Origin: an uncultured Lentisphaeria bacterium
GTDB taxonomy: Bacteria > Verrucomicrobiota > Lentisphaeria > JABSQK01 > JAJFLO01
NCBI GenBank assembly: GCA_951812855.1
Contig: OX638337.1
Span: forward strand, 150,001 to 182,000
Direction of reading: 5' to 3'
DNA: 32,000 nucleotides
A program made the translations under genes and the position numbers. The notes under the pieces were generated by a model. That model worked only from the letters and a program-made list of their open reading frames with translations, had not been told where the DNA came from and did no database searches. Of the stretch, positions 6,648-29,914 are shown piece by piece; the stretch's first letter is position 1, and every line of letters begins with the position of its first letter.

Positions 6648-6689
6648 TCCGGTTCTACAACGCAATGATATTCGTCGTATTAAGGATTA

Positions 6690-9330: not shown

Positions 9331-9538
9331 GGCAGTGTTGAATTTAAACCCTTAAACTGAAGGCACAGAGTTAACGAAGTCTTTATTATTGGCAAAATAG
9401 TTTATAAAGGTGTAATTACGGTTATTACAGCCAACCATGATTAGACTGATACAGATCGCCGATTCTATCGATTATCTACAAGATGGAACTTACTCCGATT
9501 TATACACATACGTGTTATACACCTATTTAGAACGTTAC

Positions 9539-13888: not shown

Positions 13889-16800
13889 TTAATTCGCCTC
13901 AGTAACGTTCCAGCCACCCCCAAGGGATTGATAGAGACGGACAAGCAAGCGATTGGCTGATTCGTGGGCAAGGATGATTTGTTTCTGTTTATCATGCATA
14001 TTCAATATTGCCTTAATCACATCGTGGTAATCCGACAGTCCATTCGCATATAGCGTCTCTGCAATTGTCACTGATTTGATGGCAGATGCAGCAGCAGCAT
14101 TTAATTGCGTTATTTGTTTTTGTTCGTTATCAAACGCAATTAAATTACTTTCAACTTCTTCTAATGCATGAAGAACGGTTTTCCTATAGGCAGTCATTTC
14201 CTCCCGCAGACGAAGTTTCTGTGCTCTGACTTCTTTTTTGATATAGAGACTGCTGAGAATCCGCCATTTAAAGGATGGACCGAAGCTGTACGTTTTACTT
14301 TCGTTTCGAGCCAGCTTGTTAAAGTAAGTTGAGTTCAGCCCCAAATTACCGTCTAATGTAAATTTAGGAAAATACTCGGTTCTGGCGATTTTTAAACGAG
14401 ATGCTTCGGCAGCAACACGGTGCTCTGATTTACGTATATCCGGCCTGCGTCTTAAAAGATCAGCAGGTATTCCTTCTGCTATATGTTGTTTTGGAGAGAG
14501 TAAGGAAATTTGATCCATCAGCATTGAATCCAATGCCCCTGAAACTTCGCCTGACAGAAGGCAGATACGATTGAGTGTTTGTTGTTTTTGTGTTTGGACT
14601 TGAATCAACTTAACCTGTTTAAGCAGCTGCTGTTCATTTACATCGTTAATATCCCGTTCATCAGCTGTTCCCGCATTGAATTTAGCCTTTACGAGACGGT
14701 AATTTTCCTGCAGAAGGTTAATGGTTGATTTTATTAATGACTCCTGTTCCTGCAAACTTCGATAGATAAAATATTGCTGTGCCAGATCTGCTGAAATCAT
14801 AACATGTAAATTATATAAATCTTCTGATGTCGCATGAAAATCATGTGTCGCAATATTAATGGATTCTTTAATTCGCCCCCAAAAATCCAATTCCCAGCTC
14901 GCATCCATGAACAAATCCCAGTTACTGATTGATTCAATCGTTTGAAAATTGTTCTTTATATTCTCTGAATACTGCTTTCGCCTGTAGTCACCTTCAATTT
15001 TTATAGATGGCAACCGGGTACTTTCTTCCCGTTCGATGAGCACTCTTGAACGTGCAACACGTTCCAGGCCAATCGCAATATCAAGATTCGTCAGTTTTGC
15101 CTTATTAATCAGATTTGTTAATATCGGGTCATTAAACTGATGCCACCACTGATCAAGATCACCGTCAGCAGGTGGTGAGTACGACGGTATGGACCATCTG
15201 TCAGGCAGTTTAAATTTATAATTATCGTCAATTTTATTATTTGATTTACATGATGAACCAATCACAATGATCCCCATAAGTATGAAAAGGGTTCCGGCAT
15301 TGCGGAAACGTTTTATGATTTGAGAAAATCCCATAAACAAACTCAGAAGTGCAGGGATTAATACCAGTGTAAAAACTGTAGACAACACCATGCCGCCGAC
15401 AATCACAGATCCTAACCCGCGATAGAGTTCAGAGCCGGATCCGGGAATCAGAACAAGCGGCATCATACCTCCTACAGATGTCAGCATGCTCATAAATATC
15501 GGACGAACGCGACTCTGTACCGCCAGTGCTATTGCTTTCCTCTCAGATAAAACAGGGCTTCTGTCATCGTTCTTTTCGTTATTCTTTAACAGATTGTTCG
15601 TTTGTGCAACAATTAATATTGCATTATTAACGACGACTCCGATTAATATAAAAAAGCCCAGAATAGTCAGCATATCCAGATTTTGAGTGGGGACATAGCG
15701 ATTAATTATACTCCAATGATGAAGAATGGCCAGGCCAATAAACCCGCCAAACGTAGCAAACGGGACACTGACCATAATAATCAAAGGCTGAATCCAGCTT
15801 TGAAACAAAATACACAACAATAGATAAACCGCAGCAATTGCCAGAAAAAATGAACTCTCAGCGAAACCGGAAATACTTCCGTCACCAAATAACGTTTTCC
15901 GAATATCCTGCAGTTTACCTGCTGTTCCCTGTATTTCTAAAAAAACTTTTGGAGAAATTACGCCTTTATCTCGAAGATCAGCGACAGTTTCTTCTATAGT
16001 TGCAACCGCCGCCTCAAGCGGAATTTCACCCGGGGGCGTTAATTCGAGAGAAACAGCTCGCTGCCTTTCAACCCGCTTGATTTGATCCGCTGCATCTGAC
16101 CATTGAAAACTCCCCAGACGTCTAAGAGAAACTATTTTTCCGTTTGAATTGACAACCGGTATATCAGGCAGTGTATTTAAGTGATCAAGGTCCTTACTGG
16201 TTTTTGCGATCAGTTTTAAATCAATTAAATCCCCCGAATAATCATAATCTCCTAAAATAATCCCGTCACTGACTCCCTGTACTGCCAGTCCAAAATCCTG
16301 AACTGACATGGCCATCTCTGAGAGATTAAAGTGATCAGGAATGATCTGAAGTTCACGGGAATTGACATTGAAATTTGCGGGGTCCGGTCGAAGTGTTCCT
16401 GGACCAAACTTCTCCATTAACGCCCCAAACAACGGGCTTGTTGACGAAGAGATTAAATCCAAATCGCTTCCAACCAGGTTGATTTTAATAGCCGAACCAG
16501 TTGAACCGCCAATTCGAAACAGTGGAAATTGGAATGCGAACGCATATGTTCCAGGCAGAACAGACGGCATAGTTGCTTTTTGAAACAGTGCTATATTGTC
16601 AATTGCTTTTTGAGAATCTTCACTGATTGCACCATGAAATAAAATACCATTCCGGGCAACAAGAAAATATTTCACTAAAGCAGCTGGCTCAACTGTCTCT
16701 CGAGTCTTACTGAATGGTATCTCTATAGGCTTTCGATCCGGGGTATCTTCCCAATAAGGTTGAATAGTATTTTCAACCCGCTGTCCTAATTCCTGTAATT

Positions 16801-18538
16801 GATCAAGATTATAGCCGGGTGGCGGCATCATTAAACCAAACGTAATATTTCGATTGCCTTTTGGTAAATAGTCCATTGGCGGAATCAACTTAATTGTTCC
16901 CAGAATTGTTATACCAATAAAGCACAACACAACCAGGACTTTTAAGACAAAACTGCCATTAATAAAGTAAATTAATCGATACATAAATGCATTTGTTGCG
17001 GTTCCTTTCTTCCGTATTCCATGCTTATGCAACAACGCTGCTCCGGCAGAAGGAATAACGGTAACAGCAACAAGATAACTGAATCCAACTGACGCAATAA
17101 TGGCGATAGCAATATCTTTAAATAACTGCCCAACCTGATCTGATATCATCAAAATCGGTATAAATACGACAATCGTTGTCAGTGTTGAAGCAAGAACCGC
17201 ACCGGCGACTTCTTTTGTTCCCTCATAAGCGGCCTGTAACCGTCCTCTGCCCATTTCAAGATGACTATAAATATTTTCGAGTACAACAATACAATTGTCG
17301 ACAACCATGCCAACAGCAAACGCCATTCCAGCTAAACTGACAACGTTAATGGAACGTCCCAGACTAACCATAATCACAATTGCACCTAAAACTGAAACCG
17401 GAATGGATAATGCTATAATCCCAACGGATCGGAATGAGCGTAAGAACAAAAGCAATACAACTATTGCCAGCGAACCGCCGATAAATATATTGTTTTGAAC
17501 AAGTTTAAGAGCTTGATTTATATAATTTGTGGAGCGATAAGAAAGTTCCATTTTAAGCCTGCTGGTTAATCCTAATTCCCGGGCATGCCCATCGAGTAAG
17601 CCTCCAGGTAAATGCAATTTGTCAATTTTAGCCTGAAGATTTTTCATTATTTCCAAAACATTACTTCCGGGTTCTCGTTGAAAGTTGAATGCAAGAACAG
17701 GGTTGCCATTTGCCCGGACAAATGAAGTTTGCTCCTTAAATGTTTCCTTGACCGCTGCCACATCAGCGACATAAACAATTCCGTTTGTATCCTGACGTAA
17801 AACCACATTCAATATTTGACTGACCGATGAGAACCGCCCAACCGTACGTATTCGAACATCGGTTTTTCCCTGTTTCAACGCTCCCCCGGAAATATTTAAA
17901 TTGGAACTTGTAAGAACATTCACAAAATCAGCAATCCGAATGCGATGCTGGGCAAGTTTCTCCGGGTCAAATTGTACCTGAACCTCGCGTTCTCTACCTC
18001 CGAGCACGTTTACTTCTGAAATACCCGGTACCCGTTCTAATTGGGGTTTGATTCGATCTTCAGCAAAATCAAGGAGAGTTTCAATTTCTAAAGACTTGTC
18101 CTCAGAGATCAGGATAAACCAGGCAATATAATCCTGACTCTCCGGGTCACTTGCTTCTATAACCGGTTCATCAACATTTTCGGGATAAGCAGGAACTTCA
18201 CGAAGTTTATCGCTAACCTCACGAAGTGCAGATTCTTTTTTAACTCCCGTAATAAATTCAAGTCGAATTTCCCCTCTTCCACGGCTGCTGATACTTGACA
18301 TACTCTTCAGGTTAGATAATCCCTGAAGTTTTTCTTCCTGGGGATCAATTATTTCGGATTCTATTTCATGAGGGCCGGCATTCTCCCAGTTGGTTGAAAC
18401 TGCAATGATGGTATCGTCAATTTCCGGCATCATTTGTACTGGAACAACCTTTAATGCAACAATACCCGCTAATAAACAAAATATAACTCCAACCGAAATT
18501 GTAATCGGTTGACGTGTTGATAAACGTATAATATCCAT
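13889..18538 (-). CDS. fused efflux RND permease (aa 1-~1068) plus NodT-family outer-membrane factor lipoprotein (aa ~1069-1549)
   Basis: A single uninterrupted 1549-aa ORF. The N-terminal ~1068 aa have AcrB/HAE-like 12-TM architecture. The junction reads '...LIPALLSLF-MGFSQIIKRFRNAGTLFILMGIIVIGSS-C-KSNN': a charged n-region, an h-region, and a lipobox-like GSS|C with the Cys codon at 15248-15250. The C-terminal 481 aa have OMF hallmarks ('WWHQFNDPILTNLI', C-terminal 'LYQSLGGGWN'). Confidence 0.8.
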   Translation of the reverse strand: MDIIRLSTRQPITISVGVIFCLLAGIVALKVVPVQMMPEIDDTIIAVSTNWENAGPHEIESEIIDPQEEKLQGLSNLKSMSSISSRGRGEIRLEFITGVKKESALREVSDKLREVPAYPENVDEPVIEASDPESQDYIAWFILISEDKSLEIETLLDFAEDRIKPQLERVPGISEVNVLGGREREVQVQFDPEKLAQHRIRIADFVNVLTSSNLNISGGALKQGKTDVRIRTVGRFSSVSQILNVVLRQDTNGIVYVADVAAVKETFKEQTSFVRANGNPVLAFNFQREPGSNVLEIMKNLQAKIDKLHLPGGLLDGHARELGLTSRLKMELSYRSTNYINQALKLVQNNIFIGGSLAIVVLLLFLRSFRSVGIIALSIPVSVLGAIVIMVSLGRSINVVSLAGMAFAVGMVVDNCIVVLENIYSHLEMGRGRLQAAYEGTKEVAGAVLASTLTTIVVFIPILMISDQVGQLFKDIAIAIIASVGFSYLVAVTVIPSAGAALLHKHGIRKKGTATNAFMYRLIYFINGSFVLKVLVVLCFIGITILGTIKLIPPMDYLPKGNRNITFGLMMPPPGYNLDQLQELGQRVENTIQPYWEDTPDRKPIEIPFSKTRETVEPAALVKYFLVARNGILFHGAISEDSQKAIDNIALFQKATMPSVLPGTYAFAFQFPLFRIGGSTGSAIKINLVGSDLDLISSSTSPLFGALMEKFGPGTLRPDPANFNVNSRELQIIPDHFNLSEMAMSVQDFGLAVQGVSDGIILGDYDYSGDLIDLKLIAKTSKDLDHLNTLPDIPVVNSNGKIVSLRRLGSFQWSDAADQIKRVERQRAVSLELTPPGEIPLEAAVATIEETVADLRDKGVISPKVFLEIQGTAGKLQDIRKTLFGDGSISGFAESSFFLAIAAVYLLLCILFQSWIQPLIIMVSVPFATFGGFIGLAILHHWSIINRYVPTQNLDMLTILGFFILIGVVVNNAILIVAQTNNLLKNNEKNDDRSPVLSERKAIALAVQSRVRPIFMSMLTSVGGMMPLVLIPGSGSELYRGLGSVIVGGMVLSTVFTLVLIPALLSLFMGFSQIIKRFRNAGTLFILMGIIVIGSSCKSNNKIDDNYKFKLPDRWSIPSYSPPADGDLDQWWHQFNDPILTNLINKAKLTNLDIAIGLERVARSRVLIEREESTRLPSIKIEGDYRRKQYSENIKNNFQTIESISNWDLFMDASWELDFWGRIKESINIATHDFHATSEDLYNLHVMISADLAQQYFIYRSLQEQESLIKSTINLLQENYRLVKAKFNAGTADERDINDVNEQQLLKQVKLIQVQTQKQQTLNRICLLSGEVSGALDSMLMDQISLLSPKQHIAEGIPADLLRRRPDIRKSEHRVAAEASRLKIARTEYFPKFTLDGNLGLNSTYFNKLARNESKTYSFGPSFKWRILSSLYIKKEVRAQKLRLREEMTAYRKTVLHALEEVESNLIAFDNEQKQITQLNAAAASAIKSVTIAETLYANGLSDYHDVIKAILNMHDKQKQIILAHESANRLLVRLYQSLGGGWNVTEAN

Positions 18539-19668: not shown

Positions 19669-20016
19669 TAAAATACTGACAGTTTAATCTGATCTCCCCG
19701 AACAGTTAACTCTCTAACCGGCTGGTATTACAGAGGAAACTAAAGTAGAGCGGGAGAGCTTTAAATCAAATCATATAAACCCATTATTTGATTGGAAGAA
19801 GCAAAGAAGATAGAGTCATTCTCAGCTTCCTCAACAATGCATAGCGTATTCATATTTGTTATGAAAAAATCCGTTTTCCAACTAATTTGTCAAATGATTC
19901 GCTTATAATTGAAATACAAAAAAACTATTGAACCTTTATGATCATGTATATAGTTTGAAAACTTATTTTTATACTCGATTTCTTTAGTGAATAAAACTGC
20001 GGATTTTAAGGAGAAT

Positions 20017-21066
20017 ATGCTGGATTCAACATCAGCTCCCTTCGACACGTGTATCGATGATATCTTATGTCGTAATCCAGATGACAGAAAAAAAGGTACT
20101 GTCATTGGATTTTCGAGAGATAATAGACCTGTTGAAGCATATTGTATAGGAGAAGGATCCCATCAGATTAGTTTAATAGGCGGCTGTCATGCCGATGAAC
20201 CCGTCGGGCCGAGATTACTGAAACATTTGGTAACCTATCTCCAATCCCTTTCATCTGACGATCCGTGGCTAACCCATTTTACCTGGTGGATTATTCCACA
20301 TACTAATCCTGACGGTGAAATCAAAAATAAGTTATGGTACACTGAAACCGATGAGCAATACGACTGCCTAAATTATTTCAAACACGTTATCAGAGAACCT
20401 CCCGGAGATGATATTGAATTTGCGTTCCCGAATAACTCACGGGATAATGATACCCGCCCTGAGAATATTGCGATTTATAATTGGTGGATGTCCGCACCTC
20501 ATCCATTCCATCTTCATGCGTCGCTTCATGGAATGGCGATCGGTGCCGGCCCCTGGTTCCTCGTCGAAAAAGAGTGGTGGCCGAGATGTCGACGGTTGCA
20601 AAAAATCTGTACGTCAAGAGTTGCTGAACTGGGCTATAAGCTGCACGATGTACAGCGTCATGGTGAAAAGGGTTTTTTTCGATTGGATAAAGGATTTTGT
20701 TCCCATCCGGATTCCCGGGCGATGCGTCAATATTTTATCAATCAGAATGATTTAGAGATGGCAGAAAAGTTTCGTCCCGGCTCAATGGAAACAATTCGTT
20801 CATTTGGCGGTGATCCGTTGACCCTGGTCAGTGAGATGCCGCTATTTATTATCCCGTCTGTATCCTCAGACCACACATTTATTCGAGAATGGAAAAAGAA
20901 AATTCATGATTGGTGTAAACACAAATCCGGGAATTCTCCAGACTGGGCAAAAGACATCTCAATAACCCCAATGCCCATTAAAGATCAAATGAAACTTCAA
21001 TGGACCTTTATCACCGGCGGAATTAATGTGATACTTGATCAAATCAGTGAATCAGGTCAAGAATGA
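20017..21066 (+). CDS. M14-family zinc carboxypeptidase-like protein (no signal peptide)
   Basis: Contains the 'GGCHADEPVG' (HxxE zinc motif) and 'IIPHTNPDGE' signatures of M14 peptidases. ATG 20017 is preferred because AAGGAG sits just upstream at 20008-20013. The track's GTG at 19987 has no RBS. Confidence 0.7.
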   Translation: MLDSTSAPFDTCIDDILCRNPDDRKKGTVIGFSRDNRPVEAYCIGEGSHQISLIGGCHADEPVGPRLLKHLVTYLQSLSSDDPWLTHFTWWIIPHTNPDGEIKNKLWYTETDEQYDCLNYFKHVIREPPGDDIEFAFPNNSRDNDTRPENIAIYNWWMSAPHPFHLHASLHGMAIGAGPWFLVEKEWWPRCRRLQKICTSRVAELGYKLHDVQRHGEKGFFRLDKGFCSHPDSRAMRQYFINQNDLEMAEKFRPGSMETIRSFGGDPLTLVSEMPLFIIPSVSSDHTFIREWKKKIHDWCKHKSGNSPDWAKDISITPMPIKDQMKLQWTFITGGINVILDQISESGQE

Positions 21067-21110: not shown

Positions 21111-22028
21111 TTACAGATGGTTGTCTGCGGTCGCTTTTAATAGCTTTTCGTAGTGCTTCTTCCGTTCTGTATAGTCATCGACTTCATCGGTCTTATCCCG
21201 TTTCTCTGCCCCGATAATATAAATTCTTATTTTCTCAATAATCATTTTTAATGAACTCGTTCTGTATTTGAGGGATAAATTTGAATCATTTATTATTTTT
21301 TCCAGTGCCCGAATTCTGAAACGGTCCATTCCCCAATATTTTCGGGATAACTGATCATCATGCCCGCCCCGTTTAATAATCAGAGGTTCTTCAATATAAG
21401 AAACAGGATAATAAGCACAGATTCTAAGCCAGAGATCATAATCTTCACATGCAGGAAGGGATTCATCAAAATTACCGATAGAATCGAAAAGTGAGCGGTG
21501 AATGATAACCGAGGAAGGTGAAATAGCACAGAGTGGTAAACATTTATCGTAAATCCATCCCCGGTGTTTTTTATGTTTCTTCATTTGATTTATCCGTTTT
21601 TCATTCCGAATCCAAATTTCGTTTGTATGACAGAGTTTAATGTCCTGATTTTGATTAAGCTGCTCAACCTGCATTGCTAATTTTTTGGGTAACCATTCAT
21701 CATCAGAATCTAAAAAAGCCAACCATTTAGACTGTGCTTTAGACAGACCGAGATTTCGTGCTGCACTAACACCTTTATTTTCCTGATAAATGTACTTAAC
21801 CTGAGGATAGTCTCCTTTCACCAGCCCCTGAGTATTATCCGTGGAGCCATCGTCGATAACAATAATTTCATCGGGCTGCAGCGACTGCCCCAGAATAGAG
21901 GTTAGTGCCCTATCCAGAAAATCCGCTCGATTAAACGTCGGAATAATAACTGAAATGGATGAATCAATTGACATTAGATTTAACAGCCTGTTCTGGATTC
22001 GGTTGAATAAACTTGAAAGCCTCAACAC
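21111..22028 (-). CDS. family 2 glycosyltransferase
   Basis: 305 aa. GT-A N-terminus '[23 protein letters not shown]', 'IVIDDGSTD', 'DSDDEW' (DxD). The start is uncertain: GTG 22028 or ATG 21974. Confidence 0.8.
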
Positions 22029-22076: not shown

Positions 22077-22313
22077 TTGAAACTCTCCGTTATTGTCCCG
22101 GTTTATAATGAAGTTAATACCGTCCTCGATGTTATCGAGAAGATAGAATCGGTCTGTATTGACAAAGAAATTATAATTGTCAACGACTGCTCAACGGATG
22201 GAACAAAAGAAAAATTAGATACATTGGCAGACAAAGATCATATCAAAATTTTGCATTATAAAACTAAGGATACCCCTTTGAAAATACCTTTGAAAATATT
22301 TTCCGTTGAATAG
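22077..22313 (+). pseudogene. 3'-truncated family 2 glycosyltransferase (only ~61 authentic codons)
   Basis: TTG start with AGGAG 5 nt upstream. '[23 protein letters not shown]...[12 protein letters not shown]' is a GT2 N-terminus. Homology stops at about 22257, where repeat copy A begins. The remaining codons ('[17 protein letters not shown]') are read out of the repeat. Confidence 0.75.
22258..22298 (+). repeat. island repeat copy A: 29-nt core plus one extra CCTTTGAAAATA unit
   Basis: ATAAAACTAAGGATACCCCTTTGAAAATA at 22258-22286 is identical to copy B and differs from copy C at 1 nt. It is followed by CCTTTGAAAATA at 22287-22298. Confidence 0.9.
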
Positions 22314-22413
22314 GCATAACCCTCTCTACGTAAAGTAATGCACATTTCATCTGCGATAGTATTCATTAAAACCACTTATTTTAAGGACTGATTAGCTTCA
22401 TAATACAATATAA

Positions 22414-22428
22414 TCTGTCAATTTGACA
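22414..22428. promoter_or_regulatory. perfect 7+1+7 palindrome CTGTCAAtTTGACAG overlapping a consensus -35 (TTGACA)
   Basis: Read directly from the sequence. TTGACA (22422-22427) is followed after 18 nt by TATGAA. It lies about 180 nt upstream of the first gene of the AT-rich module. Operator and promoter function are inferred only. Confidence 0.3.
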
Positions 22429-22491
22429 GGTTTAGGTTTAACCCAATATGAAAGCAATAATGCCTGAAAATAAGTTCAATATAAAATAGCA

Positions 22492-22503
22492 GGGCAAATT
22501 TGC
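22492..22503. promoter_or_regulatory. perfect 12-bp palindrome GGCAAATTTGCC just downstream of a TATAAAAT box
   Basis: Read directly. The TATAAAAT box lies at 22479-22486. Function is unknown. Confidence 0.25.
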
Positions 22504-22574
22504 CTAACAATGGGTTCCAAGGGAGGCTCAAGTTCTATAATTCAACAGAGAATTAAAGGCATCTTAAATCCAAC

Positions 22575-22592
22575 AATAATAATAATAATAAT
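22575..22592. repeat. (AAT)6 microsatellite abutting the Shine-Dalgarno of ORF 22607
   Basis: aataataataataataat is followed directly by TAAGGAGAG and then ATG at 22607. Confidence 0.9.
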
Positions 22593-22606
22593 TAAGGAGA
22601 GAAGAT

Positions 22607-23080
22607 ATGAAGAAGTTATATTTATTACCCCTTATAACAATTTTATTAAGTGGCTGTGAGCCAGCACCGCTTAAAATCGATCATAAAACACTTAAAAGAG
22701 ATGTTTCAATTTATTCCGGTCGTTTAGATGTCGACGTAAAGGTTAAATTTATGGGTAGTCAGGCTCTCTACAATCTTCATTTAAAGCCGGTTATAACATC
22801 CAATTTGAAGGATGGAAAAACAGAAGTTGATAAATCAAACCTGACATGGTTTGAAGAACAGATAAAAGATTATGATTCATATAAGGCTGTCTTTATACAA
22901 CTTAAAGATGTTGATGGATTTAAGCTCGCAGAAGAAGAAGTCAGAGTCTCTGAAGGTGGTGTAAGAATTCTTGACTCTGACTCTGAAGCTGAGTCTTACA
23001 TCTATGAAGGCACGTTCAGTGTTGATCCAGAAATTGTTCAGTTTGCCTCATACATAGAAATTGTATGGAATCTAAAGTAA
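22607..23080 (+). CDS. hypothetical lipoprotein
   Basis: 157 aa with a strong Shine-Dalgarno (AAGGAGAG). The signal 'MKKLYLLPLITILLSG|C' has a canonical lipobox. The mature part has no domain I recognise. Confidence 0.7.
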   Translation: MKKLYLLPLITILLSGCEPAPLKIDHKTLKRDVSIYSGRLDVDVKVKFMGSQALYNLHLKPVITSNLKDGKTEVDKSNLTWFEEQIKDYDSYKAVFIQLKDVDGFKLAEEEVRVSEGGVRILDSDSEAESYIYEGTFSVDPEIVQFASYIEIVWNLK

Positions 23081-23148
23081 GTGCCTAACGCCCCTACTGT
23101 GAAAATCATATACAAATGAAAATAAATCTAATAAAAAAAGGAGACGTA

Positions 23149-23760
23149 ATGAAAATAAATCTAATATCTATATTATTTCTTTTAATATCATCACAGCTAT
23201 ATGCAGCTGATCCATTGAGTTTCCGAGTAGGGTTTGTTGTTGAGGCTGAAGACAGCATTAAAGGGAGAATAGAGAGCTATATATCCAGAGAGTTACGATC
23301 GCTTGGTGATGTAATTCAATCAAAAGAAAATTATGATTATTTCTTATCGATTATAGCTCTAAAGTTACGAACAGAAAGTGGATACGATACAGGAGTAGCT
23401 CTATCAATCACGATAGTTTCGAAGTTTGAGAATAAGCATATGTCCTTCATACTCGAAGATCTCAAAGATGAGGATAAGTCAATAGCCATGGAGTTTACAT
23501 CAAATCTATATTATTACCCATATCACTGGCTTCAAAAAGGGTCGAATGAAGATCTGCAATCAATGTGCAAAGATATCGTCGCCGACTTTGATATTAAGTT
23601 TTTACAGAGTTATAGAGATATCTATCAAATAATACTGGATAATAAGAATAAGATTCGAGGTCTGGATGAAAATGAAATAAAAAAGTTGAAAAATACGATA
23701 CTGAAATATGGGAATAAGAGTGCAACAAAAGTATTTTTAAACACGCTTAAATCCAAATAA
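23149..23760 (+). CDS. hypothetical secreted/periplasmic protein
   Basis: 203 aa counted from ATG 23149, which has AAGGAG at 23138-23143. Signal peptide 'MKINLISILFLLISSQLYA|ADP'. No recognisable domain. The track's start at 23116 is an 18-nt duplicate of the true start region. Confidence 0.65.
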   Translation: MKINLISILFLLISSQLYAADPLSFRVGFVVEAEDSIKGRIESYISRELRSLGDVIQSKENYDYFLSIIALKLRTESGYDTGVALSITIVSKFENKHMSFILEDLKDEDKSIAMEFTSNLYYYPYHWLQKGSNEDLQSMCKDIVADFDIKFLQSYRDIYQIILDNKNKIRGLDENEIKKLKNTILKYGNKSATKVFLNTLKSK

Positions 23761-23778
23761 TAATGAAAGGAGAGAGAA

Positions 23779-24507
23779 ATGCAAAAAACACAAAGGGAAA
23801 ACAAAAAAGAGAAAGGATATGTGTATATATTGACAAATCCAAGTTTCCGTGAAGATTGGATTAAAATTGGTAAATCATTGAGAGAAGTTGATGTTAGATC
23901 AAGAGAATTAGATAATACTGCAGTTCCATTACCATTTGAAATTTTTGCCACTCTAAGAACAGAAAAATATGAGAAGGTTGAAAGAAATTTGCATAAAATT
24001 TTTACAGATTTAGCTGATATAAGGATTCGCAAGAATAGAGAGTTTTTTAATATAACACCAGAAGAAGCACTTGAGTATTTAAAAAATATAGCAGATCTTA
24101 TTGATGATGTTGATGGTGTAAAATTAAATGCTCCTGATGATGAAATTGAAACAAATGATGGGAAAAAACCAACCTACAAAGGTAAATACAACGTTAATAC
24201 TGATGAAATTTTTTATTTTGCAAAAGATACGACTGACGCTAAAATGAAGATTATTGATGGAAACAGATATATTGTTTTGGCAGGTTCCAAAATTGACTCA
24301 AAAATTTATAGTAATGGAGATTTTGTAAAAAAACTAAGAGAAGAGAACGCTAGTAGCCTTGATGGTGAAAAAACAACTTCTGATATAGAATTTACTTCAC
24401 CTTCAGCAGCTGGTAGTTTTGTTAAGGGTGGTTCAACAAACGGAAAATATTATTGGCGAACAAAGGATAATAAAAAACTTGATGACTTTATTGAATATAT
24501 ACAATAG
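23779..24507 (+). CDS. GIY-YIG superfamily (T5orf172/MUG113-like) domain protein with C-terminal DUF4357-like domain
   Basis: 242 aa with Shine-Dalgarno AAAGGAGAG. N-terminus 'GYVYILTNPSFREDWIKIGKS...R..EL......PF.....L........E..LH..F...R....REFF' fits T5orf172. C-terminus 'IVLAGSKI...DIEFTSPSAAGSFVKGGSTNGKYYWRTKD' fits the DUF4357 pattern (F.SPS.AA...G...NG...W). Confidence 0.7.
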   Translation: MQKTQRENKKEKGYVYILTNPSFREDWIKIGKSLREVDVRSRELDNTAVPLPFEIFATLRTEKYEKVERNLHKIFTDLADIRIRKNREFFNITPEEALEYLKNIADLIDDVDGVKLNAPDDEIETNDGKKPTYKGKYNVNTDEIFYFAKDTTDAKMKIIDGNRYIVLAGSKIDSKIYSNGDFVKKLREENASSLDGEKTTSDIEFTSPSAAGSFVKGGSTNGKYYWRTKDNKKLDDFIEYIQ

Positions 24508-24632
24508 TATTATTATATCCGGTCAAAGTTATTGTAGCAGTTTGCTTTTGCATATTTAAAGTGATTAAAAATTTAGAATTTTGATTGTGGACAGCTGTGC
24601 TTTTTCGGTTTTTTTTCGGCTATAATATATAT

Positions 24633-24661
24633 ATAAAACTAAGGATACCCCTTTGAAAATA
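24633..24661 (+). repeat. island repeat copy B (29-nt core only)
   Basis: ATAAAACTAAGGATACCCCTTTGAAAATA. It is preceded by TATAAT plus an (AT)n run at 24621-24634. Confidence 0.9.
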
Positions 24662-24856
24662 TTATGCCTTCCTTCGCCAGCATCCCAACCCCCAAAGTAT
24701 ATTTCAGTAAGAATGTTTCAGGCGGGTCTGTTAGATTATTCAAGAATGATTTTCACTTTCCAAAATATACCTTATACTAAAGAACACCCAGTTGGGGTTT
24801 TTTGCCGATGCTGACAGAAAAACCAGGCAGTTTCTGCAATCATCCCATAAGTTTTC

Positions 24857-24867
24857 AAAACTAAGGA
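24857..24867 (+). repeat. left-half copy of the island repeat (AAAACTAAGGA) forming the upp' leader/RBS
   Basis: An 11-nt exact match to the left half of the core, 6 nt upstream of the upp' ATG at 24874. Confidence 0.5.
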
Positions 24868-24873
24868 ACGGCT

Positions 24874-25065
24874 ATGTCATTTTCTCCTTTTATCCAAGTT
24901 GATCATCCTTTGGTGCAAAACAAATTGACGACCATGCGACATCAAGAAACCCCCACCGGAAATTTTCCGGGCACGGTGGAACGAAATTTCACTTCTGATG
25001 GGATATAAAGTGACCCGCGACATCGCACTTTCACATGAAAGGATCGAAACGCCTTTAACGGGGCT
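24874..25065 (+). pseudogene. upp: uracil phosphoribosyltransferase 5' fragment, frameshifted and truncated
   Basis: From ATG 24874 the frame reads 'MSFSPFIQVDHPLVQNKLTTMRHQETPTGNF'. After a +1 shift near ttttCCGGG the next frame reads 'RARWNEISLLMGYKVTRDIALSHERIETPL'. Together these track the B. subtilis Upp N-terminus ('[54 protein letters not shown]'). The homology ends at about 25065, and the rest of upp is absent from the window. Confidence 0.7.
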
Positions 25066-25786
25066 GAGCACCAACTGCTTTCACTGTGGCGATACATTGT
25101 CCTTAATGGAGCAGATACCGGCTCAGTCAATTGATCTGGTTGTTACCTCGCCGCCTTACAACCTCAGGCAGTCATCCGGTAACGGAATGAAAAACGGTAA
25201 CGGTGGAAAATGGCCAAAGGCGAAGCTGATCGAGGGCTACGAAGCACATAACGACTGTATGCCGCATGATGAGTATGTTGCCTGGCAGCGAAAATGCCTA
25301 ACGGCAATGATGCGTCTGATTAAGCCGACTGGTGCAATCTTTTACAACCACAAATGGCGCGTACAGAAAGGCTTGCTACAGGACAGAGCAGACATTTTAG
25401 AAGGTTTTCCCGTTCGTCAAATCATCGTCTGGCAACGTAAAGGTGGTATCAACTTCAACCCCGGTTATTTTCTGCCAACGTATGAGGTTATCTATCTCAT
25501 TGCGAAGCCCGATTTTAAGCTTGCGCCAAAGGCTAATGCGGTTGGGGATGTCTGGGAAATCCCACAAGAATCCAACAATCCTCATCCGGCACCGTTCCCA
25601 ACAGAACTTGCGCAGCGGTGTATAGGCTCGACAGATGCCGAAGTGGTGCTGGACCCCTTTATGGGGTCAGGAACCACCGCTATTGCGGCGGAGTCCGAAG
25701 GGCGTGCGTGGATTGGCATCGAGAAAAGCAAAGACTATTGCCGGTTGGCCAAAGAGAGAATGGCCGTCTACAGGGAGCAACAATGA
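24998..25786 (+). CDS. beta-class DNA methyltransferase (SPPY type, probable N4-cytosine) of an MvaI/BcnI-type R-M system; the first ~24 codons are upp-derived
   Basis: Motif IV 'VVTSPPYN' precedes motif I 'VVLDPFMGSGTTAIAA', which is the beta-class order. The conserved N-terminal 'FHCGDTLSLMEQIP' has only one in-frame ATG upstream of it, at 24998 inside the upp' fragment. The stop overlaps the REase ATG (ATGA). Confidence 0.85.
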   Translation: MGYKVTRDIALSHERIETPLTGLSTNCFHCGDTLSLMEQIPAQSIDLVVTSPPYNLRQSSGNGMKNGNGGKWPKAKLIEGYEAHNDCMPHDEYVAWQRKCLTAMMRLIKPTGAIFYNHKWRVQKGLLQDRADILEGFPVRQIIVWQRKGGINFNPGYFLPTYEVIYLIAKPDFKLAPKANAVGDVWEIPQESNNPHPAPFPTELAQRCIGSTDAEVVLDPFMGSGTTAIAAESEGRAWIGIEKSKDYCRLAKERMAVYREQQ

Positions 25787-26451
25787 TTACCACAAAACAA
25801 TTGTTTGAGGAGATAAGAGGCCTTTGCGACAGTGGTTGGTATGATCTGCCAAAGACCGGCGCGGGGGCACCAGGAGACTTGCTGGAGAACATTCTTGGAT
25901 TGAAAACGACAAACCACGATGGGCCTGATGCTGGTTTGTGGGAACTCAAGTTTAGTCGAGGTAATTCCCTTTTAACGTTGTGCCATAAAACACCACGACC
26001 TCGCGGCATCATCAAGTACGTTATCAATAGGCATGGGTGGATAGGTAAGAATGGGCGCAAGGGGTTTCGCCATACCATTGAAGGTGAGTCAGGCAGAGGG
26101 TTCAATATAGTCTACGATTCTGGCTCCATCTGGGTACGTCATCAGGATGATATGTCCCCTGTTCCTCATTGGACAGAAGAAGACTTGACGAATGCTATCG
26201 TCTCAAAACTGCGCCGATTGGTTTATGTGACAGGAACAGTGAAATCAGGACAAGTGAGGTATGAGAAAGCCGTTGCTTTTGAGAACATCAAAACGTCTCG
26301 TCTCATGAAGGCGATTGCAGATGGCTTAATACTCGTGGACTTTGATGCCTATATCAAGGATTCAGGGGCAGTGCGCGACCACGGCACTAAGTTTAGAGTG
26401 CGGCCAGAAAACCTCGGGAAGCTCTATGTTGAATCCACTAAAATAGTTTAG
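25783..26451 (+). CDS. type IIP restriction endonuclease, MvaI/BcnI family (PD-(D/E)XK)
   Basis: 222 aa counted from ATG 25783, which has AGGGAG 5 nt upstream. 'GPDAGLWELKF' gives PD-x5-ExK, and 'DGLILVDFDAYIKDSGAVRDHGTKFRVRPENLGKLY' parallels the BcnI C-terminus as I recall it ('DGVLVMDL...GPHDRGPHLRIPISKLDKLY'). The track's alternative start at 25618 lies inside the MTase gene and is rejected. Confidence 0.72.
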   Translation: MITTKQLFEEIRGLCDSGWYDLPKTGAGAPGDLLENILGLKTTNHDGPDAGLWELKFSRGNSLLTLCHKTPRPRGIIKYVINRHGWIGKNGRKGFRHTIEGESGRGFNIVYDSGSIWVRHQDDMSPVPHWTEEDLTNAIVSKLRRLVYVTGTVKSGQVRYEKAVAFENIKTSRLMKAIADGLILVDFDAYIKDSGAVRDHGTKFRVRPENLGKLYVESTKIV

Positions 26452-26630
26452 GGGTGTCAAGTATATCATTCCCATAGATTGAAATTTAAACGAATAAGGA
26501 TTATTGCTGTTTATACCTTTTGTTTGGGGGTGATCCGGACTATACTTTCAGGAACTCGTTGATTGAAAGTACCGAGGAGTTGTGTAGCATCTAAGGCGGT
26601 TGAACTTCAACGAGGATCAGAACCTGAAGG

Positions 26631-26683
26631 ATAAAACTAAGGACACCCCTTTGAAAATACCCCTTTGAAAATATTTGAAAATA
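26631..26683 (+). repeat. island repeat copy C: 29-nt core (1 mismatch) plus CCCCTTTGAAAATA plus TTTGAAAATA
   Basis: ATAAAACTAAGGACACCCCTTTGAAAATA lies at 26631-26659, followed by two further TTTGAAAATA-containing units. That gives 3 units here, against 2 in copy A and 1 in copy B. Confidence 0.9.
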
Positions 26684-26856
26684 CCGAAGGGCAACTTGAA
26701 TCCGCCATCATTGAACTACTCGGTGAGGAGGATTACCCGAATGTGTTGGGTGAGGCGATTGAGCGGCAGCGGCAGGAAGTGTTGATCAAGACATATTTAA
26801 ATGAATTTTTGACATTGACAATCAATAGGTTAGTAGACACTTTTGAAAATCAGTAG
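26665..26856 (+). pseudogene. hsdR: type I restriction enzyme HsdR N-terminal fragment
   Basis: 'TEGQLESAIIELLGEEDYPNVLGEAIERQRQEVLIKTYLNEFL' fits the common HsdR N-terminus pattern (tEa.LE.a.i..L..lGY....G..i..eR....evlL...L...L). It has only about 60 codons, starts at a TTG inside repeat C, and ends at half-repeat E. Confidence 0.5.
26836..26850 (+). repeat. right-half degenerate copy of the island repeat (GACACTTTTGAAAAT)
   Basis: Matches GACAC(CCC)TTTGAAAAT of copy C, with CCC replaced by T. It coincides with the end of the hsdR' fragment. Confidence 0.45.
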
Positions 26857-26928
26857 CTTAGATTCAATTTGGCAACTTGCAGGTCTTCTAACATGTGCTA
26901 TTTGAATACGTCTGGTTCTGGAAAGATT

Positions 26929-27654
26929 ATGACTCTATTTCTTTTTACAGCTGCAATTCTATCATCAACGATTTCTGGAATGATTGGAATGGGAGGGGGC
27001 GTAACATTACTTGCAGCAATGACTCTGGTCCTGCCATTCAATTTAATTATCCCGATTCACGGTATCGTTCAATTAGGCAGTAATTTTTTTCGAACGATTA
27101 TTTTACGGAAGAGTGTTCATAAAGCCTATTTTCGGTATTTTGCACTGGGCACCCCATTTGGTGCATGGCTGGCTTATAGAGTTTTATCCAGAATGACACA
27201 GCCAGACTGGGCACTTGCATTGATCGGTCTGGTTCTTTTATATGTCGTTTTTAAGCCAAAATATTTACCGGAAATTCGCCTCAGTGAGAAAGGGTATCTG
27301 TTTCTTGGAATGGTTGCAGGGGCACTGGGGTGTTTGATTGGGGCGACCGGACCACTGCTGGCACCGTTTTATGTCCGAACCGATCTATCTAAAGAAGAAA
27401 TGGTCTCAACCAAATCAGCATGTCAAATCACCATTCATCTTATGAAACTTCCTGTGTTCTCAGCGTTAGCCTTTAACTATTCAGAGCATGCGTTAACCAT
27501 TGGAATTATGTTGATTGCAGTCGTCATTGGCACAAAAATCGGAACCGAATTGTTACGTAAACTATCGACAACTGTTTTCTTGAATTTCATTAGAATAGTT
27601 ATGTTTCTGATTTCAATCCGACTTTTTTACAAAGTGGCTCTCGTTTATTATTGA
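26929..27654 (+). CDS. TauE/SafE-family (sulfite exporter-like) membrane permease
   Basis: About 241 aa counted from ATG 26929. It is a polytopic membrane protein with 'ISGMIGMGGGV' near the N-terminus and a second 'GATGPLLAPF' half-repeat, typical of TauE/SafE (DUF81). The upstream 20 codons of the track ORF look non-coding. Confidence 0.7.
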   Translation: MTLFLFTAAILSSTISGMIGMGGGVTLLAAMTLVLPFNLIIPIHGIVQLGSNFFRTIILRKSVHKAYFRYFALGTPFGAWLAYRVLSRMTQPDWALALIGLVLLYVVFKPKYLPEIRLSEKGYLFLGMVAGALGCLIGATGPLLAPFYVRTDLSKEEMVSTKSACQITIHLMKLPVFSALAFNYSEHALTIGIMLIAVVIGTKIGTELLRKLSTTVFLNFIRIVMFLISIRLFYKVALVYY

Positions 27655-27922
27655 CCGATTGGGGTTGAGGGGAATTGCGTGAAGCATCATTTAATTCAGG
27701 ATTCAGTGTAACTCACTGAATATTCCGTATTTCTTAATCGATGTAAACGCGTCAATGACTTAAATATTCATAGTTATAATTGTGATACTGATTCGAAGAC
27801 CCTGTCGTCGCGTTTTACTGACTTGAAAAATCCTATGTCATACCAATCACTATTGCCTTTTGGTTTGTTAATATTCACCCTGGGAATGCGAGATAATATT
27901 CAATATTCAGGACGGCTTTTCT

Positions 27923-28111
27923 GTGCCGGACATCATCATAGACGATGCTAATATGGCAGAAAACATAAATAAACGATTAAAGCGTCAAACACGCGTCGCA
28001 TCACTCTTCCCAAACGAGGAATCACGACTCAGATTGGCAAGTGCCATTTTGATCGAAATCACTGACCAACGGGAAACTGAAAAACGGGACCTGAAAGTGG
28101 ATCATAAATGA
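27923..28111 (+). pseudogene. IS256-family (mutator-type) transposase C-terminal remnant
   Basis: 'ANMAENINKRLKRQTRVASLFPNEESRLRLASAILIE' matches the IS256 C-terminal block (TN.iE.lN.eirRRt.vv.iFPn..S..RL..A.L.e). No upstream catalytic part is readable. Confidence 0.65.
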
Positions 28112-28228
28112 CCTGCGATTATCAAATTACAGAAGAAAATTTGCATTACCCTTTTAATTTAGGTTAACGAACACATTTTATAGTAGTTTCGATAGTTAAG
28201 CCTATAATTTTTAATCTGAGTATCTGTA

Positions 28229-29914
28229 ATGAAGTATTTTACATCTGAAATACTAAGTCTTCGACATATTCCCGGAAAACGGCGAAATATCACGATATTG
28301 TTTCGTTTTCTGTTGTTTTTATTAGGTCTGATTCTCCTGTGGAGTGTACTTTTTCACTATTTGATGAAACTTGAAGGACAGGATTATTCGTGGATTACAG
28401 GCATTTACTGGACATTAACAGTCATGTCAACATTGGGGTTTGGTGATATTACATTTCAAACCGATATTGGACGTATTTTTTCTATGTGTGTTCTCGTTTC
28501 CGGAACAGTTTTTATGCTTATCCTGTTACCGTTCACTTTTATTGAATTTTTCTATCAACCCTGGGTTAATGCCCAGGCAGCAGCTCGCACACCAACGATG
28601 TTGCCAGAACACGAGAAGGGGCATGTTATTTTGGTATCTTTTGATACAACAATAGCAACGCTGATCAATCGATTGGAAAAATATAATTATACATATGTGT
28701 TGTTAGTTGCTCAGTGGGAGGACGCATTGGTATTCCATGACCGTGGAATCCGGGTTGTGGTCGGAGATCCCGGTGATCCCGAAACCTATAACAAACTGCG
28801 TGTTGAAAATGCGGCACTGGTTGCTTCAATGGGGACAGATTCTTTCAATACAAATGTTGCGTTTACAGTACGTGGTCTGCATAAAAATATTCCGATAATA
28901 ACGAGAGCACGTGATCTTGATTCTGTTGATATTCTGGAATTAGCAGGTGCAACCCAGGTCATCGAACTCGGTGATATGACCGGTCGTGCCATGGCACGAC
29001 GGACCAGCAGTAACGCATTAACGCATATTGTCGGTAATTTTGACGACCTGTGTATCGCCGAAGCTGCCGCTGCAGAAACACCTCTTGTAGGAAAGAGGTT
29101 AATAGACAGTAACATCCGTGAGCATACGAATTGTACGGTGGTTGGAGTTTGGAATCGCGGTATTTTTGAGACTGTTACTCCGGATATAGAAATCACTGAA
29201 AATACGGTCTTAGTGTTAGCTGGATCCAAAGAACAGTTACAGCAATATGATGATTTCTTTTGTATATACCATATGGCCGGAAAACCGGTTGTAATAATTG
29301 GAGGCGGACGAGTTGGACGTGCTGTTGGAAAATCGTTGGCAGAACGAGATATTGATTATCGAATCGTAGAGATGAGTCCTGAACGAATTAAAGATCCGGA
29401 TAACTATGTGCAAGGTAATGCTGCGGATCGATCAGTTCTTGAAAAGGCTGGTATTTTAAAAACGCCATCGGTTGTTATTACGACCCATAATGATGATATG
29501 AATGTATATCTTTCAATCTATTGTCGCAGCTTAAGGCCGGATATGCAAATTGTCTGCCGTGCAATTCAGGAACATACGGTTGCGGCTCTAACCCGTGCCG
29601 GGGTTGATTTTGTCGTATCAGATGCGACTATGGGAGCAAATACAGTTTTTAATCTTCTGCGCAGAAGCGATATTATCATGGTAGCCGAGGGGCTGGATGT
29701 TTTTCGTATGCGGATGCCGGCTTCTCTAGTCGGAAAATCCATCGCTGACTCAGCAATTCGTGAGATAACGGGATGTTCTGTTGTTGCCGTTAAATCGAAT
29801 GGTCAAACCGAAATTAATCCGGTTCCCGATCATTTACTGAAGAAAGGATCTGAAATTGTGCTCATTGGAACCATTGCCGGTGAAGAAAAATTTGTCTCCA
29901 GGTTTGTCGATTAA
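28229..29914 (+). CDS. potassium channel with 2-TM pore and two TrkA-N/TrkA-C (RCK) modules
   Basis: 561 aa. Pore helix and filter read 'WTLTVMSTLGFGDITF' (the TxGxGD class). The second RCK has a canonical 'VVIIGGGRVGRAVG'. The first RCK ('HVILVSFDTTIATL') lacks the glycine motif. Confidence 0.8.
   Translation: MKYFTSEILSLRHIPGKRRNITILFRFLLFLLGLILLWSVLFHYLMKLEGQDYSWITGIYWTLTVMSTLGFGDITFQTDIGRIFSMCVLVSGTVFMLILLPFTFIEFFYQPWVNAQAAARTPTMLPEHEKGHVILVSFDTTIATLINRLEKYNYTYVLLVAQWEDALVFHDRGIRVVVGDPGDPETYNKLRVENAALVASMGTDSFNTNVAFTVRGLHKNIPIITRARDLDSVDILELAGATQVIELGDMTGRAMARRTSSNALTHIVGNFDDLCIAEAAAAETPLVGKRLIDSNIREHTNCTVVGVWNRGIFETVTPDIEITENTVLVLAGSKEQLQQYDDFFCIYHMAGKPVVIIGGGRVGRAVGKSLAERDIDYRIVEMSPERIKDPDNYVQGNAADRSVLEKAGILKTPSVVITTHNDDMNVYLSIYCRSLRPDMQIVCRAIQEHTVAALTRAGVDFVVSDATMGANTVFNLLRRSDIIMVAEGLDVFRMRMPASLVGKSIADSAIREITGCSVVAVKSNGQTEINPVPDHLLKKGSEIVLIGTIAGEEKFVSRFVD

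Follow-up and report, generated by a model that had tools for sequence, protein, structure and literature searches.

The window analysed here, a stretch of 32 kilobases (kb) from an uncultured Lentisphaeria bacterium, contains at positions 22258-26856 a region in which three same-strand copies of a 29-nucleotide (nt) block, ATAAAACTAAGGAYACCCCTTTGAAAATA, separate modules of unrelated genes. Judged by its gene content, this region is probably a small, decayed island of defence modules, comprising a GIY-YIG gene similar to the candidate system PDC-S57, a type II restriction-modification (R-M) gene pair and a relic of hsdR, a gene of type I R-M systems. The repeated block itself probably represents the junction region in front of hsdR together with the first three codons of that gene, rather than a stand-alone recognition sequence. 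The features of the region and its borders, in which open reading frames are designated ORFs and protein lengths are given in amino acids (aa), are the following.

22077-22257, + strand: 5' fragment (~60 codons) of a glycosyltransferase gene, GT2b, ending at the left edge of copy A
22256-22366, - strand: short ORF that runs into copy A and is called as a 32-aa gene in contig L001
22258-22298, + strand: repeat copy A, the 29-nt block (22258-22286) plus an extra 12-nt tail unit (22287-22298)
22299-24632, + strand: segment 1, 28-37% GC, with three ORFs
22607-23080 and 23116-23760, + strand: two ORFs of segment 1, secreted or lipoprotein-like, with no family match
23779-24507, + strand: GIY-YIG (T5orf172-DUF4357) gene of segment 1 (Pfam T5orf172 5.8e-14, DUF4357 2.9e-12)
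24633-24661, + strand: repeat copy B, with a single tail unit in the window
24662-26630, + strand: segment 2, consisting of ~195 nt, a upp leader and fragment, a methyltransferase, an endonuclease and 179 nt of non-coding DNA
24874 to about 25057, + strand: frameshifted 5' fragment of upp, fused to the methyltransferase
24998-25786, + strand: N6/N4 DNA methyltransferase ORF (Pfam N6_N4_Mtase 1.9e-40; PADLOC MTase_II 4.6e-116)
25783-26451, + strand: MvaI/BcnI-type restriction endonuclease (Pfam MvaI_BcnI 2.5e-28; PADLOC REase_II)
26631-26683, + strand: repeat copy C, in which the 29-nt block is extended by tail units of 14 and 10 nt; the final TTGAAAATA is the start-codon region of the hsdR relic
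26676-26790, + strand: hsdR relic, the start and ~38 codons with a 1-nt deletion after the start, within an ORF at 26665-26856
26836-26850, + strand: degenerate right half-copy of the block, GACACTTTTGAAAAT, near the end of the hsdR-relic ORF, possibly a chance match
27923-28111, + strand: C-terminal fragment (62 codons) of an IS256-family transposase (Transposase_mut; Pfam PF00872 on the identical gene of contig L002)

The three blocks lie at 22258-22286, 24633-24661 and 26631-26659, spaced by 2375 and 1998 nt; copies A and B are identical and copy C is off by one base, the copies agreeing at 28 or 29 of the 29 positions. Pattern matching and shuffling reproduced the original prediction on this point, which held that there are three copies on one strand and no other full copy in the 32 kb. 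No further match was found in the window even at ≤3 mismatches, and at the same tolerance none of 100 dinucleotide-preserving shuffles contained one, the number expected by chance being 0. When flanks of 100-150 nt were aligned, the copies shared no similarity past the ~30-nt block and its tail. Searches for extra copies, like those for recombinases, covered ~40 kb of a 1.94-Mb genome, that is the window and a further 8 kb of contig L001. The other 27 kb of the window and the additional 8 kb held no copy of the 29-mer, and the high-copy, genome-wide repeat that would have refuted the prediction was thus not seen in the ~40 kb that could be read. An exact search of GTDB genomes, IMG/VR and JGI metagenomes with the 27-nt core of the block yielded no match, and the block was absent from all 91 loci taken from other genomes.

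Within the block TAA is followed by a 19-nt spacer, which includes AAGGA, and then by TTG AAA ATA, with AAGGA positioned 7 nt upstream of TTG. Inverted symmetry is confined to CTAAGG...CCTTTG, a pair of 6-nt arms with one mismatch, and does not extend to the outer arms. When either strand of copies B and C was folded as a single strand, z-scores were near 0; a stem of only 4 bp is common to all copies, and the tools used detected neither terminal inverted repeats nor a hairpin in the block. These features do not correspond to the short sequences with which the block might be confused. Only its first 6 nt resemble the end of IS256, and no IS interior follows any copy. A Xer/dif site (28 bp, two partly palindromic 11-bp arms and a 6-bp spacer) would require inverted outer arms and structure, both of which are missing. 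A length of 29 nt fits a CRISPR repeat (28-37 nt), but coding DNA of 2.0-2.4 kb lies between the copies, and cas genes were not recognised; an integron attC site would display an imperfect hairpin, and the z-scores are near 0. A consensus scan placed promoter-like hexamers over copy A on the minus strand. The Bacteroidetes-type promoter motif TAnnTTTG occurs in the tail of copy A only, and the spacing to an upstream TTTG is wrong.

The probable identity of the block emerges from the hsdR relic that follows copy C. Protein homologues of the relic are 74-84% identical to it, and one of them is named as a type I restriction enzyme R subunit. At the DNA level the homology to hsdR of locus L005 spans 26676-26790 (115 nt; TGAAAAT-ACC against TGAAATTCACC) and starts inside the last tail unit, at the start codon, where TGAAAAT-ACCGAAGGGCAACTTGAATCC is matched with TGAAATTCACCGAAGCCCAACTCGAATCA and TGAAAAT-ACCGAAGGGCAACTTGAA lies opposite TGAAATTCACCGAAGCCCAACTCGAA. 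Because the homology begins in the last tail unit, the TTG of the tail is taken to be the start codon of hsdR. The block's final 9 nt can be aligned with the starts of homologous hsdR genes, one of which begins with GTG; the HsdR homologues open with MKFTEAQLESAII, and the window would give MKNTEGQLESAII with one more A in its A-run. The Shine-Dalgarno-like AAGGA and the TTG, which had appeared puzzling in the core of the repeat, are most simply explained as a translation start, that of hsdR. It follows that the view of the 29-mer as a stand-alone recognition sequence of an undescribed type of element is not sustained, as its right part would be the native ribosome-binding site, start and first codons of hsdR. 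The TAA that opens the block is possibly the stop codon of a former upstream gene. Among the ORFs of the window and the genes called in contig L001 neither hsdM nor hsdS was recognised, and hsdR is present only as the relic of ~38 codons.

The array could be followed on three contigs. The window is 100% identical to contig atg001923l of ENA ERZ18545485 (L013), and two further contigs of the same assembly, ptg000035c (L001, 1.94 Mb) and atg002111l (L002), are each ~99% identical to it. L001 and L013 carry all repeat copies and both segments in identical order, and the partial L002, which begins inside segment 1, agrees from there onward. The three contigs represent two haplotypes ~1% apart, which differ by single-nucleotide polymorphisms (SNPs) and by the length of the tails. 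Thus, the array is older than the split of these strains, since both haplotypes carry the one arrangement. For segments 1 and 2 the SNP density between the window and L001 amounts to 0.68% and 0.46%, respectively, close to the values for the left (0.35%) and right (0.56%) flanks. None of the contigs lacks a segment. The presence/absence polymorphism of segments that the original prediction implied is therefore missing from the three contigs, which counts against that prediction, albeit at a shallow depth of divergence. The island displays no sign of present mobility, as three contigs at ~99% identity keep a single order.

The tails of the copies, in contrast to the order of the segments, differ between the haplotypes. 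In the window the tail of copy A consists of CCCCTTTGAAAATA and CCTTTGAAAATA (14 + 12 nt), that of copy B of one 14-nt unit and that of copy C of units of 14, 14 and 10 nt; these lengths bear out the earlier count of two, one and three iterations. The units vary only in the number of C residues (4, 2, 1 or 0) before TTTGAAAATA, and all share the right boundary (...GAAAATA), their left boundaries lying at -20, -5, -3, -2 and -1. In comparison with L001, copy A has two units against one, copy B one against two plus 23 extra nt, and copy C three against two, and of the five multi-base indels that distinguish the strains over 13.8 kb, three sit in tails. Copy B in both L001 and L002 has C rather than T at the variable base (Y), is followed by an 11-nt second unit and 23 nt, and lacks 11 TA-rich nt upstream; it thus carries the base of copy A in one strain and that of copy C in the other. 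We infer that the 10-14-nt units are an unstable stutter of the start-codon region, which changes by slippage or by exchange from copy to copy.

Two half-copies of the block had also been reported. The left half, AAAACTAAGGA, is present exactly at 24857-24867 in the leader of upp; at ≤1 mismatch about one chance match per window is expected for this sequence, and four were found, all of them exact. The right half at 26836 exists, but is a match at background level, since a 12-mer at ≤2 mismatches is expected ~8 times per window, and it lies 46 nt past the end of detectable hsdR homology. A remainder of GT2b beside this right half-copy was sought and rejected, the local alignment score of 23 being equal to that of shuffled sequence. 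The association of the copies with broken genes, as originally proposed, holds for GT2b, which is cut at copy A, for the truncated upp at the left half-copy and for hsdR after copy C, while termination of the hsdR fragment by a half-copy is weak and possibly fortuitous.

The modules between the copies are independent of each other and contrast sharply in composition, as had been predicted from spot counts; GC content is 28-37% in segment 1 and 46-52% over the R-M genes of segment 2, with flanks of ~40%. The GIY-YIG gene of segment 1 matches PADLOC PDC-S57 at 1.7e-49, and its nearest plasmid homologue resides in a defence island alongside hsdM/hsdS and a WYL regulator; an exact look-up of the T5orf172 protein returned a match in this genome only. 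Two simple-sequence runs, (AAT)n at 22567-22590 and a TA-rich run at 24621-24631, differ between the strains by 6 and 11 nt, respectively, and this variation in both runs indicates high simple-sequence instability in the AT-rich segment 1. The first ~195 nt of segment 2 have a host-like composition and contain a possible ORF of 39 codons and, on visual inspection, a hairpin resembling a terminator. Once the frameshift is corrected, codons 1-61 of upp match the Upp structure 3dmp in PDB (E = 1.2e-13). The methyltransferase ORF opens within this fragment (24998-25060), and its first ~20 codons are upp sequence; as the ORF starts inside upp, the R-M pair entered upp before or during the arrival of the segment. 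No copy of the 29-mer is found at the upp/methyltransferase junction.

At the left border the GT2b fragment is recognised by Pfam Glycos_transf_2 (E = 1.9e-12) and is 79% identical to residues 12-73 of a 238-aa orthologue in L014. Two of the three strain differences in the minus-strand ORF at copy A are synonymous in its frame, and this ORF may be a 5' fragment of some gene. On the right side of the island the IS256-family fragment, which lies between TauE and a potassium-channel gene, constitutes another scar. No recombinase, tRNA or known RNA family was found in or near the island. The ORFs of the window and the genes called in L001 (~40 kb) include no recombinase, and the ORFs and folds agree with the earlier statement that the array itself holds no integrase, transposase or attC-like hairpin.

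An older state of the locus can be seen in relatives, although these are not close. GTDB representatives include no close relative, a query with an RND protein giving only matches of 22-27% identity; the nearest orthologues of GT2a (21111-22028), the neighbour of GT2b, are 67% identical in L014 and ~70% identical in a cluster that includes L016. In both of these loci GT2b is full-length (238 or 227 aa) and transcribed divergently from GT2a, and tRNA-Leu(TAA) follows ~70-180 nt after GT2b (L014 1259-1343, L016 409-494). DNA homology to both ends at 22256-22267 within GT2b, and neither the rest of GT2b nor tRNA-Leu(TAA) is detectable in window positions 22250-28300. Thus, the island replaced the 3' two-thirds of GT2b and the tRNA-Leu(TAA) that follows it in relatives. 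As the tRNA was lost from the locus, its gene must lie elsewhere in the genome or have been replaced. Alignment with relatives, proposed earlier as a way to an empty site with a single copy, has therefore yielded an older state with GT2b and the tRNA intact, though only from orthologues at 67-70% identity; more distant GT2a relatives (L019-L021) share no synteny.

The wider significance of the block became apparent from other hsdR loci. A scan of JGI metagenomes with the hsdR N-terminus returned 70 loci, 26 of which contain two to five copies of the N-terminus by tblastn. A count by DNA pattern, which also catches short relics and covers 66 other loci including three from ENA, found two to five copies of the hsdR 5' end in 28 (~40%) of the loci of this hsdR family, all on the hsdR strand and mostly 1.1-3.5 kb apart. 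One locus, L036, has five copies in 9 kb (507, 2950, 4946, 7760 and 9148). Neighbouring copies are alike from the ATG on, share 0-3 nt upstream of it and are 76-93% identical, and the relics range in length from 24 to >280 nt. Between the copies lie RhuM, 23S_rRNA_IVP, AbiEi/Eii, Schlafen-AlbA_2 (SLFN_AlbA_2)/HATPase_c_4, a deaminase fusion, DUF3800, an AAA_21 ATPase with HNH, Fic and DUF488, which are the usual accessory genes of type I systems. In L005, an unrelated locus with a homologous hsdR fragment, a stretch of ~40 nt from the hsdR start is found on either side of a 2.1-kb cassette (23S_rRNA_IVP, a 168-aa ORF and AbiEii); in L023 a diverged hsdR 5' fragment (94 nt, 87% identity) is followed by an AbiEi/AbiEii cassette and then by full-length hsdR. 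Several of the surveyed loci also end in an hsdR relic. Against plasmids, tblastn with the hsdR N-terminus gave eight single-copy matches and no arrays.

The junctions of these arrays are asymmetric. For each type of cassette the junction on the hsdR side is fixed and that on the other side is variable, and neighbouring hsdR copies are different alleles. RhuM cassettes, for example, are preceded by relics of 25-248 nt, and the left end of RhuM itself shifts by 100-300 nt; since relic lengths differ before one cassette type, the left joints are not site-specific. No recombinase was found between hsdR 5' copies in the survey representatives scanned. The variable relics at 28 of 66 loci and the lack of a recombinase between copies argue for recombination anchored on hsdR homology rather than on an att site. 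Third positions of hsdR codons 1-9 (27 nt, ATGAAATTCACCGAAGCCCAACTCGAA) are conserved at 0.85-1.0, compared with ~0.7 further in (40 distinct sequences, L027-L096), which could reflect a constraint on translation initiation, frequent gene conversion or a site at the DNA level.

Two further features were observed in the surveyed loci. The defence island at L005 contains a ~400-nt repeat in three to four copies (1408-1956, 2872-3276 and 6246-6650), one of which directly follows a truncated hsdR fragment. Certain arrays have an in-frame fusion between the hsdR relic and a conserved C-terminal tail of HsdS (LRDTLLPKLISGEL...), as in L028 (~805-910), L032 (~775-880) and L036 (~9277-9380), and also in P0007 and P0008. 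The joint may lie at a shared DLR/NLR motif, and the fusions hint at deletions between tandem operons; an HsdS tail after the relics is no general rule, being present in few loci only.

The reading of the window that we favour, with a probability of about 0.5, is that its array arose by the stacking of cassettes anchored on hsdR homology, without a dedicated att site. The window agrees with the survey in that the repeated unit holds the hsdR start and first codons, the copies are on the hsdR strand and the content between them is of the defence type. In this process, of which we infer both the order of events and the mechanism of recombination, incoming DNA consisting of a cassette plus hsdR would pair homologously within hsdR on the right side, while its left end would join illegitimately, or through very short homology, inside the 5' region of the recipient hsdR. 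The old hsdR start would then stay behind as a stub upstream of each newcomer, giving in the window the order copy A, PDC-S57-like cassette, copy B, type II R-M cassette, copy C and the last ~38-codon hsdR relic. Such a process, which would amount to homology-facilitated illegitimate recombination or, equivalently, to the formation of tandem operons followed by deletion, would need no dedicated integrase. Once the first stub existed, the 29-30-nt block could itself have served, on our assumption, as the short left-hand homology for later exchanges; the copies would therefore stay identical, and the allele switch at copy B would also be explained. Later deletions would have removed hsdM, hsdS, the rest of hsdR, the 3' part of GT2b and the tRNA. 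At the GT2b joint there is possible microhomology (8 of 11 positions in an A-rich stretch). The original interpretation of serial insertion of foreign modules, in one orientation and at one short sequence, is retained here, whereas an att-like site or a new type of element is considered less likely in view of the hsdR 5' relic arrays elsewhere.

It should be emphasized, however, that several observations weigh against cassette stacking on hsdR homology as the origin of this array. The window differs from the surveyed loci in that its copies share 20-21 nt upstream of the start, where the survey copies share 0-3 nt, and match at 28 or 29 of 29 positions, where the survey copies are 76-93% identical. 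Both internal stubs end exactly at +9, a coincidence that random illegitimate joints would rarely produce twice. The link to a type I operon hangs on the 115-nt relic, as no hsdM, hsdS or intact hsdR is seen nearby. In addition, the use of the block as short homology is assumed, the microhomology at the GT2b joint is weak, and the exact left half-copy in the upp leader is not accounted for.

A site-specific process retains some probability precisely because the window copies are near-identical, share 20 nt upstream and have both stubs ending at +9. It could be argued that the copies are att-type cores left by tandem site-specific integration, comparable to the accretion of cis-mobilisable elements or to composite staphylococcal cassette chromosome (SCC) islands, with the recombinase encoded elsewhere in the genome or since lost. 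Consistent with this view, which we regard as possible but clearly less probable than stacking on hsdR, the three copies have the same left and right boundaries and one orientation, and the segments are self-contained and contrast in GC. The locus in relatives also harbours a tRNA gene, which is classically a hotspot for the entry and integration of foreign DNA. Furthermore, the sole variable base lies between the inverted 6-mers CTAAGG and CCTTTG, and at copy B its allele differs between the strains, as could happen in a crossover region. The arms of this symmetry, however, extend over only 6 nt with a mismatch, and shuffled sequence folds equally well. The block occupies a gene start region and has no similarity to tRNA-Leu(TAA), from which it is thus not derived; the segments, at ~2 kb, lack mobility genes, and no recombinase is encoded within ~40 kb. 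Neither the uniform content of the contigs read nor the lack of an exact database match to the core is what recurrent site-specific integration would predict.

A second alternative, which we consider unlikely, is that the target was duplicated in situ, either through staggered cuts ~29 nt apart that were filled in, or through stalling of replication at +9, where repeated switches of template would have brought in foreign segments and then copied the block again. Every unit ends at the one right boundary (...GAAAATA) while the left boundaries differ, the copies are nearly identical and the tails vary in both haplotypes, all of which would fit such an event. We know of no bacterial insertion mechanism, however, that duplicates 29-30 nt around 2-kb inserts, and the variable lengths of the surveyed relics and the divergence of their copies are unlike a ruler-like duplication. 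The change in tail length, moreover, could be produced by slippage alone once a duplication exists.

Slightly less likely still is the proposal that the hsdR 5' end is a dedicated, integron-like capture platform, at which cassettes are inserted, and perhaps excised, near the start codon by machinery acting in trans. If this were the case, the sharply bounded 29-30-nt block of the window, whose central base varies and whose tail stutters, would show the minimal site in its cleanest form, and the synonymous conservation of codons 1-9 would reflect selection on a DNA site.

It is improbable that the 29-mer is a moderately repeated intergenic element, whether a small mobile element or a regulatory one, that sits at the junctions by coincidence. 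Although a ribosome-binding site and promoter-like motifs in the block are compatible with such an element, further copies are missing from the rest of the ~40 kb, the block has no terminal inverted repeats or hairpin by the tools used, and each of the three copies marks the exact point at which unrelated stretches of DNA meet. Finally, the sharp change in GC and the truncated genes at the copies might be thought to betray a chimera joined at a shared k-mer, but this has scarcely any probability and the array is not an assembly artefact, given the same order on three contigs and in two haplotypes ~1% apart with differing tails; the contig names, ptg... and atg..., fit the hifiasm pattern and presumably denote a long-read assembly.

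Two genes to the left of the island were also noted. On the minus strand, a 1549-aa ORF (13889-18538) combines an RND efflux pump (ACR_tran) and an outer-membrane factor domain (OEP) in a single polypeptide, an unusual arrangement, and adjoins a gene for a periplasmic adaptor. On the plus strand, an M14 peptidase ORF (19987-21066) has a 1-nt indel between the strains at 20088, near its 5' end, and is called with products of 359 aa in the window, 349 aa in L013 and 279 aa in L001; because of this indel the start of the gene is uncertain or variable.

The wider pattern of hsdR 5' relics is more notable than the modest case in the window, as it offers a testable route for the embedding of defence genes, in which the hsdR-start stub that precedes each cassette is the visible footprint of embedding. 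In such a scheme hsdR may serve as a homology anchor, and defence genes could be stacked without the machinery of mobile elements. Repeated hsdR starts could also serve as a marker of cassette boundaries, and hence as a guide to candidate defence genes not yet recognised in genomes and metagenomes. The example within the window is decayed and no longer functional; its value lies in the lead that it provides to the wider pattern and in being an unusually sharp case, one that keeps a site-specific mechanism under consideration.

Accessory genes are known to be embedded in type I operons, prrC and the rlo genes of Campylobacter being examples. TgvAB lies within the type I cluster of VPI-2 in Vibrio cholerae (PMC11411939), and a 'guilt-by-embedding' survey exploited embedding to discover defence systems (Payne et al., bioRxiv 10.1101/2024.01.29.577857). 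In these systems, as in the arrays described here, defence or toxin-antitoxin genes directly precede hsdR, with a PDC-type gene in the window and RhuM, AbiE, AlbA_2 and Fic in the survey. The arrays differ in that the cassettes are separated by relics of the hsdR start, and the type I system of the window is reduced to a 115-nt relic. No account of a route of entry was found in the preprint of Payne et al., which never uses the terms 'direct repeat', 'recombination' or 'hsdR', and the passages of the VPI-2 paper that concern 'embedded' genes contain neither an account of gene entry nor repeated hsdR starts. No relevant description of repeated or truncated hsdR 5' ends emerged from literature searches, and cassette arrays with hsdR 5' relics as separators thus appear not to have been described previously.

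The closest parallel in mechanism is homology-facilitated illegitimate recombination, described for naturally transformable bacteria, in which one homologous anchor is combined with one illegitimate joint. The process predicts a fixed, donor-derived junction at the anchor and a variable joint at the opposite end, where recipient sequence may be duplicated, and it needs no recombinase gene; the surveyed loci agree in all three respects, and we consider that it has probably acted there. It does not by itself explain, however, two stubs that end at one base or the 20 nt shared by the copies of the window. Tandem accretion at an att site, as in cis-mobilisable elements next to integrative and conjugative elements and in composite SCCmec islands, resembles the window in that direct repeats in one orientation partition an island and most segments lack an integrase. 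In those islands, however, the repeats are the end of the target gene (a tRNA gene or rlmH) and the integrase is known, whereas the block of the window corresponds to the start of a gene, comparable arrays have repeats of variable length, and the region read contained no recognisable integrase. Integron arrays likewise consist of short gene cassettes in one orientation, with a recurring separator, before a fixed platform; in contrast to these, the region read here has no attC hairpin, IntI or attI, and some of its cassettes comprise several genes and fragments. Finally, orphan toxin-immunity modules sit downstream of cdiA or rhs genes, where, as at hsdR, short retained stretches of a conserved gene flank alternative modules and allow homologous reshuffling. 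In that case the stretch belongs to an internal 3' region and reshuffling swaps the gene's own C-terminus, whereas in the arrays described here it is the 5' start of the gene that is retained and the modules are separate genes.

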